Shown piece by piece: positions 678 to 6,746 of a DNA stretch of 7,179 bases. Made by a program: the position numbers and the translations under genes. The notes under the pieces were generated by a model. That model was not told the origin of the DNA and did no database searches. It worked only from the letters and a program-made list of their open reading frames with translations. The DNA is from a virus. The stretch lies in UHGV virus genome UHGV-0269045; one strand, written 5' to 3'. The stretch's first letter is position 1. The number at the start of each line of letters is the position of its first letter.

Positions 678-1601
678 TCAGCTTTTCGCCAGAACGGTGA
701 CGGCCTTATCGAGTTTTTGCCATCCGCAATAGGTGATTGCCCTGAACGCTGTAGCGTCATTCTGGAAAAGGCTAACCGCCCCTGATTCGGTTTTTATTAC
801 CGCCTCATCAGTTGGGGTTATAACCGTGGCTTCAACGTTAATAATCAGCTTTTGAGCGTCTATCAGCATCATGCGATCAGCCTGTTCGCTCACAATTACC
901 GGTATTCTCAAAAGCTCTATCTGCCAGAACTCAGCATCAGTAAGCTGTAAGGCGTTTTCTACGGGCAAGATTAGCGACGACGTTGCAAGCGTGTTACCGT
1001 TCGCTATGTGCTTTTTGAAAAGCTCTATGAAGTTTTCGGCCTCATCAGCACCATTAAGCACGCCCTCAGGGGATACGCCAGCCACCTCCTGATCACTGGA
1101 AAGAAATTTTTCATCTATTTCTTTCACCGATTCCGATGTGATCAAGTCTCTGATCGCTGAATTGGTGCCGGGGGTGCTAAATTTGATTAGCTCGTTATTC
1201 AGCATCACAATAGCGCCAAGTTTGCACAGTTTTAGCGCGCTTTCGTTTACTTCTCCCTCTTTGACAGGGATTTCTTCGGCTTCTTTAAGCCATTTACTAC
1301 CCTTGCCTGATATTGACTGCAATTTTGCTCCAAACGGAAGATTTAGCGCGCTGCTGATTAGCTTGCCAGGTACAGACTGCGAAAAAATATACTCGCCAAG
1401 CTCTCTTACTATCGGCTCTGCCACCAGCGACGGCATGTTATCCGTGTTCATTCCTGCTACTACGGATTTTTCAAGAAATAACGATACTGCCGGATCATTT
1501 CTTTTCGTCATCTCTATAGCGTCAGCATGGCTAAATTTACACGATGCCAGCACGCTGGCGGCGCGAACTGCTGACACGCCTTTCATGTTTTTACAGATCA
1601 T
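678..1601 (-). CDS. HK97-fold major capsid protein homolog (Phage_capsid-like), short form (307 aa) without an obvious N-terminal scaffold/delta domain
   Basis: ATG at 1601 preceded by AGGAGGAGG about 8 nt upstream. The C-terminal region (ILPVENALQLTDAEFWQIELLRIPVIVSEQADRMMLIDAQKLIINVEATVITPTDEAVIKTESGAVSLFQNDATAFRAITYCGW) resembles the conserved HK97-family pattern (PADW..IELL ... GLPVVVT ... LVGDF ... RTIRAEER). Family call is by eye. Confidence 0.55.
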   Translation of the reverse strand: MICKNMKGVSAVRAASVLASCKFSHADAIEMTKRNDPAVSLFLEKSVVAGMNTDNMPSLVAEPIVRELGEYIFSQSVPGKLISSALNLPFGAKLQSISGKGSKWLKEAEEIPVKEGEVNESALKLCKLGAIVMLNNELIKFSTPGTNSAIRDLITSESVKEIDEKFLSSDQEVAGVSPEGVLNGADEAENFIELFKKHIANGNTLATSSLILPVENALQLTDAEFWQIELLRIPVIVSEQADRMMLIDAQKLIINVEATVITPTDEAVIKTESGAVSLFQNDATAFRAITYCGWQKLDKAVTVLAKS

Positions 1602-1752
1602 CTTCTTCCTCCTCCTGGAAGCACGGGTTTAGTGTTTCGTGAAAATATGGCATCAGAACAGCGGCGGCCTGTAACCGTATTTCGGTCGACTGCTGCTTGT
1701 CGTTCATGATTTCCGTGAGTACATCAATAGGGTCTGTGATGTATTCGCTCAT
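1591..1752 (-). CDS. Small hypothetical protein (53 aa, acidic C-terminus EEEEDDL), translationally coupled between terS and the capsid gene
   Basis: ATG at 1752 lies 11 nt after the terS stop with GAGGT upstream; its 3' end overlaps the capsid-gene start by 11 nt. Below the ORF-track length cutoff; found by manual translation. Confidence 0.45.
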   Translation of the reverse strand: MSEYITDPIDVLTEIMNDKQQSTEIRLQAAAVLMPYFHETLNPCFQEEEEDDL

Positions 1753-1763
1753 AGTTCGCTACC

Positions 1764-2252
1764 TCAGTGTTTTAAGTCTGTTGGTGGCTTAGGGATGGGG
1801 AACCGATTTGAGTAGACACTAGCGGCATTGAGTTTTTTAACCTCTTTTTTCCCAATGCTGCCGATCTTGCGGTGGGTGAACTGGGCCAGCTTAAACGCGG
1901 CATCTAAAGCCAGTTTTGGATCTGTGTCCATGTTGTCAATCAGTATCCTGCCCATTGCTTTGATGGGGTCGGGTAGGCCGTTATCCATCATCTCAATGGT
2001 GTTAATTGATGCCCGTTCCGGTGTAACTTTTTCGGTAACTTTCTTTGTAACTTTTTTCGGTTTTGTAACCTGAAAAGTTACATCAGAAGTTACAGCCTTA
2101 AGATACTTTTTCACCTCAGGATCATTGGATAGCTGCCAGCCTTTAACCCTTGCGGTCTTTTCGCTGTATCCCGCATGTATAGCGGCTTCCGTGGGATTTG
2201 CGCCCCTTGATAACGCATCAGCAAACCGCTTTTTTTTGGTCGTTAATGCCAT
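1764..2252 (-). CDS. terS: Terminase small subunit (Terminase_2 / PICI-type TerS), 162 aa, with internal KKVT repeats
   Basis: Start chosen at the internal ATG (2252) with GAGG 8 nt upstream. N-terminus MALTTKKKRFADALSRGANPTEAAIHAGYSEKTARVKGWQLSNDPEVKKYL matches the canonical Terminase_2 N-terminal HTH signature (..KQ.RF...Y...N.T.AA..AGYSEKTA...G..LL..P.V). The track ORF extends to 2387 but that extension has non-protein-like composition. Confidence 0.8.
   Translation of the reverse strand: MALTTKKKRFADALSRGANPTEAAIHAGYSEKTARVKGWQLSNDPEVKKYLKAVTSDVTFQVTKPKKVTKKVTEKVTPERASINTIEMMDNGLPDPIKAMGRILIDNMDTDPKLALDAAFKLAQFTHRKIGSIGKKEVKKLNAASVYSNRFPIPKPPTDLKH
2023..2093. repeat. Cluster of six GTAAC/GTTAC pentamers inside terS (four direct, two inverted), with two more GTAAC-TTTT copies just upstream of terS at 2276-2292
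   Basis: GTAAC at 2023, 2035, 2047, 2065; GTTAC at 2077, 2089; GTAAC at 2276, 2288. Eight copies in about 270 bp against an expectation of well under one. Confidence 0.6.
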
Positions 2253-2370
2253 GCAAAAACCTCGTTTTGAGGGGGTGTAACTTTTCGTGTAACTTTTTTG
2301 AAAAGCAAAATTTTCTACGAATGAGACGGGGGGCGGTGTCCAGGGCGATCGACTTTCCGGCCGGAACACT

Positions 2371-2380
2371 CCCCCCCCCC
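2371..2380. repeat. C10/G10 homopolymer tract between the 53-aa gene and terS
   Basis: Read directly (ten consecutive C on the plus strand); lies 4 nt after the stop of the upstream minus-strand gene and about 120 nt before the terS ATG. Confidence 0.9.
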
Positions 2381-2383
2381 ATG

Positions 2384-2545
2384 TCATTGCTCACCGAGTA
2401 ACGAGATCAGGCCTTCAAGTTCATCACTCAGCTTGTTTATTCGTGTCTCAAGCTCTGCGATCTTTTCCATCAATGGCGCTATGGTGTCTCTTGTTTCCTC
2501 GCCAATGGCCTTAATGATGCTTGCCTCGCGTTCTGTGATAGCCAT
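2384..2545 (-). CDS. Small hypothetical protein (53 aa), predicted helical / coiled-coil
   Basis: ATG at 2545 follows the upstream gene's TAA by 3 nt (GAGGCGTAAACAATG); translation MAITEREASIIKAIGEETRDTIAPLMEKIAELETRINKLSDELEGLISLLGEQ. Below the ORF-track cutoff; found manually. Confidence 0.5.
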   Translation of the reverse strand: MAITEREASIIKAIGEETRDTIAPLMEKIAELETRINKLSDELEGLISLLGEQ

Positions 2546-2548
2546 TGT

Positions 2549-2743
2549 TTACGCCTCACTTGTTGCAATGCCCAGGCGTTCGCGTAACAGTACGCGCGCA
2601 AGATGCCCTATTGTTGGTGTTGCCGCCCTGCCGTAGATACCTGATTCATTCATCCGGCGCACAATATCGAACTGCAACCTTTTAAGCTCGTTAAGGATTT
2701 CATGATCAATCATCACGGTAGCACTTTGCTTTATCTCTTCCAC
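2549..2743 (-). CDS. Small hypothetical protein (64 aa), first gene of the terS/capsid operon; possible small regulator
   Basis: GTG start at 2743 with a strong AGGAGG 7 nt upstream; protein-like composition; function not recognisable. Confidence 0.55.
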   Translation of the reverse strand: MEEIKQSATVMIDHEILNELKRLQFDIVRRMNESGIYGRAATPTIGHLARVLLRERLGIATSEA

Positions 2744-2831: not shown

Positions 2832-2855
2832 AAAAAAAGCCGGATTGCTCCGGCT
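2832..2855 (-). terminator. Rho-independent terminator on the minus strand
   Basis: Minus-strand RNA reads AGCCGGA-GCAA-UCCGGCU followed by U7 (plus strand shows A7 then gccgga ttgc tccggc); located 20 nt downstream of the 90-aa ORF stop. Confidence 0.7.
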
Positions 2856-3432: not shown

Positions 3433-5181
3433 TTATAAAAACGCGTCACAATCATCAGTTGTAATTGCGTTGGTCTGCGTTACTCCCTTAACTCTCCGCG
3501 TAATATATTCATGCCCGTAAACTTTCGCCGCTGGCTTCATGGCCTTGCTGAACTCAGCCACGTTTAGCGGTTTGCTCCTGCCTGCGTATGCCATAAACGC
3601 CAGATAGACGCGGTAAAGGCTGTTCCTGGTCGTATACTTCACTGAATCACCACCGCCCCCCATCATCAGGCCGCGCGCTTCCTCCAGAAAATTCAGGAAC
3701 TGGCAAAACTCAATAACCGGATCCGTCTGTTGCTTTATCGCCAGTGCTTCATCACCGTCGCGCTGTTCCAGTAATAAAGCCCGTGCCTTTTCAGGGTCGG
3801 CAAAATTAGCCAGCAAGCGACGGATAATTACGGGGATTTCAGCCGCGACCTTCTCCGGCAAATCCTTGTCTTTTTCGTCCTCCCTTACAATGTTGTCGAA
3901 CCGGAAAATCACCCGACGGCGTGACACACCTCCGGCCCGCTCGGTGAATATCATCGGGTTATTGTTGGTAGCCAGCACCACCGCCCTGATTACCGCCGTA
4001 AAACGCTTCTCATATTTCGGGTTTATTTCCACGGGGTCGCCGCCCGTGATTTTCTTGATGCCCGTTCCTTCGCCTGTATATTTCGGCTGGTCAGCCAGGA
4101 CGATAAGACGACTCCCGACAACCTGCGCACGTCCACCAGCATCATCAAGTGAGGTCATTTCAGCGCTTACCGTGTTCTGTTTCCCTGCCAGAAGGCTGGC
4201 TATGTGCGTGAATGTACTTTTACCGCTACCGCCCTCTCCGGTGGCCTCAATAAACATCTGCCAGTCGTACCGGTTCGCCATAATCATGTACAGCGCGGCA
4301 CATATACGCATCATCTTTCGCGGGTCTTTTCCGGCTGCGTGCTCAAGCCATTTATGAAAGTTTGGCGCGTTGTCGCGAATGTTCTCCCCTGGTGCTGGTG
4401 GCGTGTACTCAATGCCGTTGTGCGTGGTGATCCAGTTCTCCGGCGTGTGCGGGGAAAATTCCCCCGCTTTCAGGTCAAGCACACCATTGGCGAACGGCAG
4501 CAAATCGCCTGACGGCTCCCCCATTGGTTCGGCAATAACTTTTAACGCTTCCACGGCGTTATTGATTACGCGCTTGCTGAAAGTGGCCCTGTGCTCTGAA
4601 TAGATCACCACCATTTCGCGGCTCAGCTCCATTGTGCTGACCGGACACCATACCCCGCCGCGCCATACGTGAACTATTTCACTTTCAGGATGTACGCAAA
4701 CGCCATCAAATCGACCAGCAAGCAGCTGGGCGCGCTCACTGTCTGCCATTTGTGCCAGTTGCGTATTTTTCTGCTCCGGCATGGTAAGCCCTGCGGCAAT
4801 ATTTTCACGCTCAGCATTCAGATAGCGCCGCCAGTTTTCACACTTCTGGGCGTGCATTCCTTCGGGGTAAAAATTTGTGTCCTGAATATCTGCTGCCGCC
4901 AGCTTCTGACCAATCTTTTTGGTCTCCACCAAGTCCAGTTCTCCTGCCTGGTACAGCCTTACGCGTTTTTTTCCATCAGGAACAATTTGCAGTGCATCAA
5001 GTTCGGCAAGCTGATTTGGCCCAAGCCACACAGGAGGCACATTATCGCCGGATGCGGGGCCGTCCTGCTCCTGCCACTGTTTTGCATGTGCCCACGCATC
5101 ACTACCCGCGAAAATAATCACCTCTGTGTCTTTGTGTTTTATTCCGCGTGGCTGTTTTTTTACGTTCGGTGCCAGTTTCAT
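3433..5181 (-). CDS. Replicative primase/helicase (P4 alpha-like / PICI Pri-Rep type): N-terminal primase-like region plus SF3-type P-loop NTPase
   Basis: 582 aa; Walker A GEGGSGKST around residue 320; N-terminal VIIFAGSDAW ... RVRLYQAGE resembles a toprim-like primase region; ATG overlaps the upstream gene's stop in an ATGA arrangement; iterons directly downstream. Confidence 0.85.
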   Translation of the reverse strand: MKLAPNVKKQPRGIKHKDTEVIIFAGSDAWAHAKQWQEQDGPASGDNVPPVWLGPNQLAELDALQIVPDGKKRVRLYQAGELDLVETKKIGQKLAAADIQDTNFYPEGMHAQKCENWRRYLNAERENIAAGLTMPEQKNTQLAQMADSERAQLLAGRFDGVCVHPESEIVHVWRGGVWCPVSTMELSREMVVIYSEHRATFSKRVINNAVEALKVIAEPMGEPSGDLLPFANGVLDLKAGEFSPHTPENWITTHNGIEYTPPAPGENIRDNAPNFHKWLEHAAGKDPRKMMRICAALYMIMANRYDWQMFIEATGEGGSGKSTFTHIASLLAGKQNTVSAEMTSLDDAGGRAQVVGSRLIVLADQPKYTGEGTGIKKITGGDPVEINPKYEKRFTAVIRAVVLATNNNPMIFTERAGGVSRRRVIFRFDNIVREDEKDKDLPEKVAAEIPVIIRRLLANFADPEKARALLLEQRDGDEALAIKQQTDPVIEFCQFLNFLEEARGLMMGGGGDSVKYTTRNSLYRVYLAFMAYAGRSKPLNVAEFSKAMKPAAKVYGHEYITRRVKGVTQTNAITTDDCDAFL

Positions 5182-5482: not shown

Positions 5483-5725
5483 TTATTCTCCGATAGCGTG
5501 ACCTGATAAGCCGTTAATCTTCTCTGATATGCTCTCTATTTTGCTGGTTGAACTATCCAGTAATTCAGAAACGGCTAATATTAATCTTGCAGTTGATTCA
5601 TCGCGTTCATTATTCACCAGCGACTGAAGCCACATATTCATTACTTCGTTTGCTGCGTTGTTTAAAGATATTGCGCTGTTGGCAAGGCTTCTTAATTCAC
5701 TGGTCGCCAGTTTATTATTTTTCAT
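5483..5725 (-). CDS. Hypothetical protein (about 80 aa; start ambiguous between 5725 and 5743)
   Basis: Track ORF 5483..5746; the ATG at 5725 (MKNNKLATSELRSL...) overlaps the upstream gene's end by 11 nt; stop lies 5 nt before the next gene's ATG. Confidence 0.5.
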   Translation of the reverse strand: MKNNKLATSELRSLANSAISLNNAANEVMNMWLQSLVNNERDESTARLILAVSELLDSSTSKIESISEKINGLSGHAIGE

Positions 5726-5906
5726 AGCATTCGGCTCTCTCATCAATTAACCACAGCGCAACACTTTCTGACAGTTTTGCCAGAAGGCCAGCTAATGCGG
5801 ATATATCACCATCATTTAATTTATTAGGGTATACCTCAAGAAGGCGGCAAATAATTTCTGTCTGGTGCGCACGTTCAGCGGCTTCGTGTAATGTAATTTC
5901 CTTCAT
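5715..5906 (-). CDS. Hypothetical protein (63 aa)
   Basis: ATG at 5906 overlaps the stop of the upstream ORF (TAATG); protein-like composition (MKEITLHEAAERAHQTEIICRLLEVYPNKL...). Confidence 0.55.
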   Translation of the reverse strand: MKEITLHEAAERAHQTEIICRLLEVYPNKLNDGDISALAGLLAKLSESVALWLIDERAECYEK

Positions 5907-6097: not shown

Positions 6098-6746
6098 CCC
6101 CCTGACGAATACGGGCGACAAAAATAAGATGTGCGTGCGGCAGCTGTGCGCGTGCTTCGCACTCAGTGGCAGCGGTAACGGTGAATATTGCAATGCTGTC
6201 TGTCAGGCACTGCATAAAGCGCCAGACAAAGTAAGGGCGTGCGGATACAGCCATGTGAAAGGCTCCCAGATGAATTTTAAGGAGTCTCGCTACTACGCTG
6301 TCAAACATGGTGGCGAGACGTAACAGGGTTGACAGACTGGTCATCTGGAAACCAGCGAGCACAAAGGCTCCCCCGTTACGCCCCGCCATAATGCGGGTAT
6401 GGGTAGGTTTACGGACACAAAAAAACCGCTTATCGGATGTGGGCGGCTGTCCGCCAGATGTATTCAGGCTGTCAAACCCGGTCGCCATGTGGGCGACGGG
6501 GGAAGCATACAGCCCCGTGATAATTTTTTGCAAGCGGTTTTTACGCATGATGTGACCCCTGACGAATACGAGCGGCAAATACAGCAACACAACCTGACGG
6601 GCAACGGCTACGCGCTTCGCGTTCCGTCCAGGCGGTTACGTGGATGATTTGAGATTCTCCGGCACTCAGTGCCAGAAAACGCCACACAAAGGCCGTTTGT
6701 GTGTACAAGGTGTGGTATATGATTTACGGCAACCATAACGGCTCCT
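6098..6746. repeat. Repeat-rich noncoding leader / regulatory region containing two diverged paralogous segments (about 6098-6266 and 6555-6745) that begin with an identical 15-mer
   Basis: CCCCTGACGAATACG at 6099-6113 and 6556-6570; further shared motifs GCACTCAGTG(G/C)CAG (6159-6172, 6662-6675), CTTCGC, CGGT(A/T)ACG, ACAAAGG and a terminal GGCTCC (6261, 6366, 6740). ORFs on both strands here have non-protein-like composition. Confidence 0.6.

Follow-up and report, generated by a model that had tools for sequence, protein, structure and literature searches.

What is an uninterrupted run of ten guanines doing in the short gap upstream of a small terminase gene? The window (the whole stretch of DNA analysed here, 7,179 nucleotides of the virus genome UHGV-0269045) has its longest homopolymer in exactly this gap: C10 at positions 2371–2380 of the plus strand, which reads as G10 on the minus strand. 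As all credible genes of the window lie on the minus strand, it is the coding strand that carries the G's. Independent-base and first-order Markov estimates agree on about 0.007 expected C/G runs of at least ten bases per window. The run starts 3 nt past the TGA stop (2384–2386) of an open reading frame of 53 aa and ends 118 nt before the ATG of terS (2250–2252), and the gap between the two genes measures 131 bp. A first-pass annotation of the sequence had pointed out ten coding-strand G's between the 53-aa gene and terS, and this is exactly where they are found.

The window is a PICI-like phage satellite. Elements of this type carry an integrase, a primase and some packaging genes within about 10–15 kb and are devoid of tail, lysis and terL genes, and this is the composition observed: the window encodes a primase, a small terminase subunit and a capsid-like protein (Table 1), in addition to a DUF4222 protein and members of small PHROG families of unknown function, and bears no terL, HNH, tail or lysis genes. 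The integrase is seen in a related island of E. coli O157:H7 NE 1092-2 (locus L001), which holds the same genes from the integrase to the capsid-like gene on about 8 kb plus ends; terL, HNH, tail and lysis genes are likewise absent from the gene content of this island. The terS product is identified as a small terminase subunit by PF03592 (Terminase_2; 1.4e-10) and phrog_641 (1.5e-43). Its exact sequence occurs in 7264 blocks of the assembly collection, and 222 of 5426 complete E. coli genomes contain the 401-bp region corresponding to window positions 2200–2600, chromosomal every time. No complete E. coli genome is identical to the window over these 401 bp—the best match reaches 98.5%—and the window represents a recombinant or minor allele combination of a very common island.

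Read along the coding strand, the gap upstream of terS consists of the G-run, a spacer of 35 nt, the decamer CGCCCCCCGT (2326–2335) and CTCAT. On this side of the site, CTCAYNCNNAGAAAA is conserved across the cos-site family described below. The decamer is identical to the cohesive end of the Stx phages 1717, 2851, phi330 and Stx1a_PV728, and matches that of phage Lys8385Vzw in 9 of 10 bases. For the cos phage Lys8385Vzw, PhageTerm gave 3′ cohesive ends with the cos sequence CGCCCCCCCT (PMC7946995). Its record starts with CTCACGCAGAG and ends with GGACAC-CGCCCCCCCT, at a position homologous to the cut predicted for the window. In HK97 and HK022, G9, 32 nt and CGCCGCCAAA stand at the very end of the record; both phages have 10-nt 3′ overhangs (PMC9410871), and both records end at the published cohesive end. 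The window site thereby combines three features of an HK97-type cos: it is homologous to experimentally determined 10-nt 3′ cohesive ends, it lies immediately upstream of terS—in phages this is the HNH–terS junction, and here the 53-aa ORF replaces HNH—and it bears, on the same strand, a run of at least about 7 G ending 32–35 nt before the cohesive end (here G10 and 35 nt), a feature that was defined in this analysis and is not literature-derived.

Table 1. Features of the satellite packaging region and of the genes referred to in the text, in window coordinates
Feature	Position	Strand	Remarks
D5_N/DUF5906 primase	3433–5181		
53-aa ORF, no assigned function	2384–2545	minus	occupies the place of the HNH gene in phages
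ATG opening a 45-codon terS extension	2385–2387	minus	in some alleles only; judged non-coding
G10 run	2371–2380	minus	−45 to −36, counted from the first base of the predicted cohesive end
Conserved G7 core	2371–2377	minus	−42 to −36; 2378–2380 are the variable distal extension
35-nt spacer AGTGTTCCGGCCGGAAAGTCGATCGCCCTGGACAC	2336–2370	minus	3′ end is the conserved CGATCGCC-CYGGACAC block preceding the cut site
Predicted 10-nt cohesive end CGCCCCCCGT (cosN equivalent)	2326–2335	minus	3′ overhang by homology
Left-end side of the predicted cos	2253–2325	minus	CTCATTCGTAGAAAATTTT, two AAAGTTAC repeats, terS ribosome-binding site
terS, 162 aa, the satellite's own small terminase subunit	1764–2252	minus	
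Four more AAAGTTAC copies inside terS	2023–2081	three minus, one plus	encode KKVT repeats
Capsid-like protein, 307 aa	678–1601	minus	PF05065, 9e-07

On the other side of the predicted cut, the two AAAGTTAC repeats upstream of terS are located at 2277–2284 and 2289–2296. The window holds six copies of this octamer as compared with 0.23 expected, and none of 200 shuffles reached six. The stretch from 2253 to 2325 is, by analogy, a candidate for the TerS-binding, cosB-like part of the site, and the AAAGTTAC repeats are candidate satellite-specific TerS binding sites. Two other assignments were considered for the region. A lambda-type cosN was suggested by GGGGGGCGGTGTCC on the plus strand, which resembles GGGCGGCGACCT of lambda (9/12), and was dropped since the homology to the HK97/Stx type implies the opposite overhang type and orientation. 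A pac site with headful packaging was suggested by the Terminase_2 family; the HNH–terS–terL context of the relatives and the published cohesive ends favour cos. Rfam gave no match at the tract, and its only matches in the window are C4, a1b1 and isrK at 6306–6510.

How widely is this arrangement shared? Distant TerS relatives were reached via protein homologues and their contigs, while the TerS protein query against species-representative genome contigs returned no related loci. A prophage of Hafnia alvei, whose TerS is 57% identical to that of the window (P0009), has the gene order HNH, terS, terL, protease-capsid, which is a hallmark of HK97-like, HNH-dependent cos phages. Its HNH–terS spacer carries G7, 35 nt ending in CTGGACAC, and then CTCGCCTTCT-CTCAC. 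A Salmonella satellite shows G9, 35 nt and CGCCCCCCCT-CTCAC, and a second E. coli satellite family G9, 35 nt and CGCGCCCCCT, located downstream of an HNH-like gene of its own.

The closest DNA matches are found in phages. Over the stretch that begins with the G-run and extends about 30 nt beyond CGCCCCCCGT, the window is about 80% identical to 77 phage records in a DNA search, nearly all of them Stx1a, Stx2c or Stx2 phages and 1717, 2851, BP-4795 and Lys8385Vzw among them. In every case examined, the match lies between the HNH gene and terS, in the order HNH, cos, terS, terL. As in the satellite, the run length of these phages is variable: G7 in Lys8385Vzw, G8 in Stx1a_PV728, G9 in BP-4795, G10 in phi330, G11 in 1717 and G12 in 2851. 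Beyond this shared core both sites differ, as GTTAAC palindromes and a stretch of about 270 nt precede terS in the Stx phages, whereas the satellite has AAAGTTAC repeats in the place of these palindromes and its run lies 118 nt before the terS ATG, and its TerS is only 46% identical to that of the Stx phages.

The conservation of the run itself can be judged only from sites that were collected independently of it. A first scan pattern demanded a G-run and hence cannot test run conservation, and many of its matches are probably due to chance. A scan by the cohesive-end motif alone, with no G-run required, yielded 117 loci, and in 113 of these (97%) a run of G6 or longer ends 32–35 nt upstream, mostly at 34 or 35 nt. 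The spacer measures 35 nt in the satellites and the Hafnia phage, 33–34 nt in the aligned Stx phages, with 33–35 nt over the scanned set, and 32 nt in HK97 and HK022. Among unique sequences, run lengths distribute as 5 (2 sequences), 6 (4), 7 (40), 8 (29), 9 (10), 10 (3), 11 (2) and 13 (1), and more than one run length occurs within 10 of 16 groups of identical flanks. In 18 representatives that are less than 85% identical to each other, positions −42 to −36 are G in 89–100%, as compared with a conservation of 33–39% at the flanking positions. Among the scanned loci, anything between 39 and about 268 nt separates the cohesive end from terS; hence, the G-run is tied to the cut site and not to terS. 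Since many of these loci belong to related prophages of enterobacteria, common descent could partly explain the conservation of the run; HK97, the Hafnia phage and the 18 divergent representatives speak against it as the whole explanation. A literature search for a G-run or a cosQ in HK97-type cos sites found nothing, the original HK97 cos paper lying outside its scope, so that a prior mention is possible. In the searchable HK97 papers, TerS binds downstream of the cut, and the G-run goes unmentioned. The HK97 cos was reportedly defined by Juhala et al. in 2000.

Within the satellite, the run is polymorphic. Ten aligned E. coli loci bear G6, G7, G8, G9 and G10 alleles in an otherwise near-identical stretch, and in some of them the T preceding the run is missing. 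With a 90-nt query, 171 of 220 complete genomes fall into the band of identity that the CA+G7 allele represents (net −4 nt), and the other 49 carry longer alleles, at net 0 (n = 10), −1 (n = 13), −2 (n = 25) and +1 (n = 1); apart from the loci actually aligned, these lengths were inferred from alignment length. Strains Z1766, Z1768 and Z1769 are one G apart from the near-clonal Z1767, as are FRIK2533 and FRIK2069 from FRIK2455. In 16 further assemblies encoding the same TerS, the run is G6, G7, G8, G10 or G11, while the spacer keeps its length, with single-base substitutions only, and neither the sequence of the cohesive end nor the distance of 118 nt to terS changes. The satellite range is thus G6–G11, and the G10 of the window is a long allele. 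Differences of ±1 between clones may partly reflect homopolymer assembly errors, which cannot account for the overall length range. Slippage at the G-run is hence supported. The first-pass annotation had considered the tract slippage-prone and had proposed to compare its length across isolates: alleles from G6 to G11 and one-G differences between near-clonal strains agree with the former, and the invariance that would have spoken against it is not seen. Such length differences from assembly to assembly should not be read as regulatory variation.

A hypermutable run of G or C whose length differs between close relatives is also what characterizes the poly-G contingency loci of Neisseria, Haemophilus and Campylobacter. 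By analogy, slippage in the window could change promoter spacing or the frame of an upstream ATG and thereby turn the level of TerS, or an extended isoform of it, on or off—a reading that the clear length polymorphism invites and that the first-pass annotation had raised. In part, the sequence agrees with it: the terS frame is open back to an ATG that overlaps the upstream stop as ATGA, as had been noted, which gives an ORF of 207 aa (1764–2387), and it is open through the run in all aligned E. coli alleles. An in-frame upstream ATG exists, though, only with CAT+G10 (the ATG at 2387) and CAT+G9 (AT plus the first G), and neither in CAT+G8 nor in the commonest allele, CA+G7. In relatives the extension does not persist, staying open for just 9 nt in the Salmonella satellite, for 57 nt in a Shigella variant and for 63 nt in the Stx phages, and all 13 TerS homologues found measure 137–163 aa, with an extension in none. 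The terS start at 2252 has a ribosome-binding site of its own, the PF03592 and phrog_641 alignments both begin at TerS residues 1–3, and the RefSeq annotation uses the same start for the 162-aa product; TerS should hence be made whatever the run length. A scan for sigma-70-like promoters found none between 1700 and 3500. Unlike in contingency loci, the run is neither inside an ORF nor between promoter hexamers—it follows the upstream stop and precedes terS by more than a hundred nucleotides—so that no expression switch is apparent. The same run is found where no ORF is affected, including the ends of the linear HK97 and HK022 records, and it is anchored to the cohesive end instead of terS. With the upstream ATG restricted to some alleles, the extension closed in relatives and no promoter-like site found between 1700 and 3500, phase-variable terS expression is not supported, and neither the promoter-spacing role nor the frame switching nor the phase variation of the packaging module that had been envisaged is borne out. 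A phase switch on terS would be a new way of regulating packaging, but we regard it as very unlikely. The first-pass annotation had also drawn attention to an A8 at 2230–2237 (T8 on the plus strand): the run is there, but it covers terS codons 6–8 (AAA AAA AAG) and not 5–7, and it is A8 in 11 of 11 loci (the window and L001–L010).

A hairpin in RNA or DNA fares no better. The minimum-free-energy fold of 2250–2400 (minus strand) pairs eight of the G's with CCGCCCCCC, and the pairing of the run with the C-run of CGCCCCCCGT might form a long stem that serves as a terminator, an attenuator or an mRNA-stability element between the 53-aa gene and terS. This fold is no better than that of shuffled sequences (z = −1.37, with 21 of 200 shuffles equal or better), no U-tract follows the stem, and a terminator scan made no call there. 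Moreover, the Hafnia phage with CTCGCCTTCT and HK97 and HK022 with CGCCGCCAAA keep the G-run without a complementary C-run. Pairing is hence not what is conserved, and we consider the hairpin highly improbable as an explanation. The run might finally be a homopolymer without function, a mutational accident or an assembly artefact hitch-hiking beside a genuine cos core: homopolymers are error-prone in assemblies, the length of the run is unconstrained upward, and no bound protein is known. Against this stand the low chance expectation given above and the presence of the run in 97% of independently found cos sites, with a lower bound near 6–7 and completely different flanks, as well as its retention in three satellite lineages, HK97 and HK022, whereas an unselected G-run is expected to decay by substitution. 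An idle run is therefore improbable, too.

The reading that we prefer, at a probability of about 0.7, is that the gap upstream of the satellite's terS is an HK97-type cos site copied from, or co-evolved with, those of HNH-dependent cos phages—the long-tailed Stx1a/Stx2c phages being closest—and that the G-run is a subsite of it. It builds on the observed homology, position, conservation and polymorphism of the run; from these we infer that cleavage takes place at 2326–2335, that a protein reads the run and that run length is probably without effect, although some influence on packaging efficiency may exist. The subsite would consist of a minimum of about 7 G on the strand bearing the 3′ overhang. 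The run is a strand-specific element on the last-packaged side of the genome: its proximal edge keeps a fixed distance of 32–35 bp to the cohesive end, and only its distal edge is free, with no conserved sequence beyond; slippage hence alters the length of the run but not the functional spacing. Run lengths range from G7 to G13 in phages and from 5 to 13 over all cos sites, and the mode at G7 together with the sharp lower bound suggests a minimum-length requirement. The satellite would have kept the run, the CGATCGCC-CYGGACAC block, the cohesive end and CTCAYNCNNAGAAAA, and would have swapped the GTTAAC palindromes for its own AAAGTTAC. Since the shared part of the cos is kept and the TerS-binding repeats are replaced, the run is most likely read by the TerL, the HNH protein or the portal of the helper.

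A possible place for such a contact can be drawn from HK97, where TerS (gp1) binds at +15 to +29 downstream of the cut (PMC11331095). There, TerS acts as a roadblock and TerL cuts with the help of the HNH protein gp74, and the termination complex has about 25 bp of DNA inside TerL, as far as the entrance of the portal (PMC11331095, PMC9410871, PMC10359639). At 36–42 bp upstream, the run would be situated inside or just beyond the portal once the cut site reaches the nuclease. It may help to position the terminal cos cleavage or to set it off, much as cosQ would in lambda; alternatively, within the same role, it might hold the DNA end. Like cosQ, the run is short and precedes the cut by a few helical turns, on the side that is packaged last. 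Unlike cosQ, which lies at −24 to −30, it sits at −36 to −42, and the two are without sequence similarity. CosQ is needed for termination (PMC6092414), and by this analogy of place the G-run may be its functional counterpart. What the comparison adds to the picture of HK97-type cos sites is a sharply conserved G-run whose distance to the downstream cut is fixed. A wider interpretation would take the G-run as a general cosQ-like signal of HNH-dependent packaging, read by TerL, the HNH protein or the portal, with slippage tuning the efficiency of cos; the competition between satellites and their Stx-phage helpers would then be played out at a hypermutable packaging signal, a phase-variable cos site in place of a phase-variable gene. 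We hold this to be rather unlikely.

How does the site compare with known packaging systems? With the cos of HK97 and HK022 it shares the location just upstream of terS, a 10-nt cohesive end starting with CGCC, an A/T-rich stretch after the cut and a G-run about 32–35 nt before the cohesive end (PMC11331095, PMC9410871). Unlike these phages, the window encodes neither HNH nor TerL and has to borrow both, its cohesive end and flanks match the Stx-phage branch, and its repeats are AAAGTTAC. Satellites carrying the cos of their helper are already known from P4, SaPIbov5 and EcCICFT073, and capsid homologues occur in such satellites as well. Cos SaPIs such as SaPIbov5 resemble the window satellite in having the cos of HNH-dependent helpers and an HK97-fold capsid homologue (Ccm) (PMC5052747; cf-PICI preprint). 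Unlike SaPIbov5, the window satellite is Gram-negative, and its cos core is paired with its own TerS and its own repeats. Such a combination beside the cos core could make packaging of the satellite preferential rather than shared. EcCICFT073 with its cos1 is, like the window satellite, an E. coli PICI with helper-like cosQ and cosN and a cosB of its own (PMC6739421), but it is of the lambda type—with a 5′ overhang and no HNH—and uses the Rpp adaptor, whereas the window has a full TerS homologue and an HK97-type cos. We file the satellite as one of this known kind, satellites with a helper cos, here with an HK97-type cos plus its own TerS.

Three independent links, the cos DNA, TerS and the capsid-like protein, lead to the same group of phages as potential helpers. 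The capsid-like protein is a distant homologue of the capsid of these candidate helpers: across 93% of its length, it shares 24% identity with the capsid portion of a protease-capsid fusion in Stx1a/Stx2c/PPompW phages. Long-tailed Stx1a/Stx2c phages occur in the same E. coli lineages as the satellite, and strain RM8385 carries the satellite (H99) and yields Lys8385Vzw upon induction. On this circumstantial basis, the long-tailed Stx1a/Stx2c phages are the likely helpers, a link that bears on the spread of Shiga-toxin phages or the interference with these phages. A predicted cos site with its cut position is placed on a widespread satellite of enterohaemorrhagic E. coli.

Several further observations concern the surroundings of these sites. 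In the spacer of the Stx phages (L021–L026 and many viral loci), a second homopolymer of A6–A8 is also variable in length; as this variation moves the run-to-cut distance between 33 and 35 nt, the spacing tolerates ±1. In the second satellite family (E. coli loci L011–L013), an HNH-like ORF (about 2348–3000 in L011) reads through its own G9 run and the cos core, and an A7/A8 difference just past the cos switches the called ORF from 162 to 211 aa. Further upstream in the window, a terminator-like hairpin at 2838–2855 (minus strand) follows a 90-aa gene, and an AT-rich stretch precedes a 64-aa gene. The operon containing terS probably starts within 2744–2860, at least about 360 nt upstream of the run, where no sigma-70 consensus was found.

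An ORF of 53 aa that separates terS from the capsid-like gene (1591–1752, minus strand) matches positions 89–125 of phrog_641 (3.5e-07). It may represent a fragment of the TerS core and possibly serves as a decoy for the TerS of the helper. Elsewhere in the window, Rfam assigns a C4 antisense RNA to 6306–6393 (minus strand, 72.6 bits), the a1/b1 target of C4 to 6461–6510 (minus strand) and a sub-threshold isrK-like match to 6419–6497 (minus strand). This cluster lies upstream of an ORF at 5715–5906, the positional counterpart of the icd-like gene of L001; together with this ORF, it forms a P1/P7-type RNA immunity cassette in the satellite.
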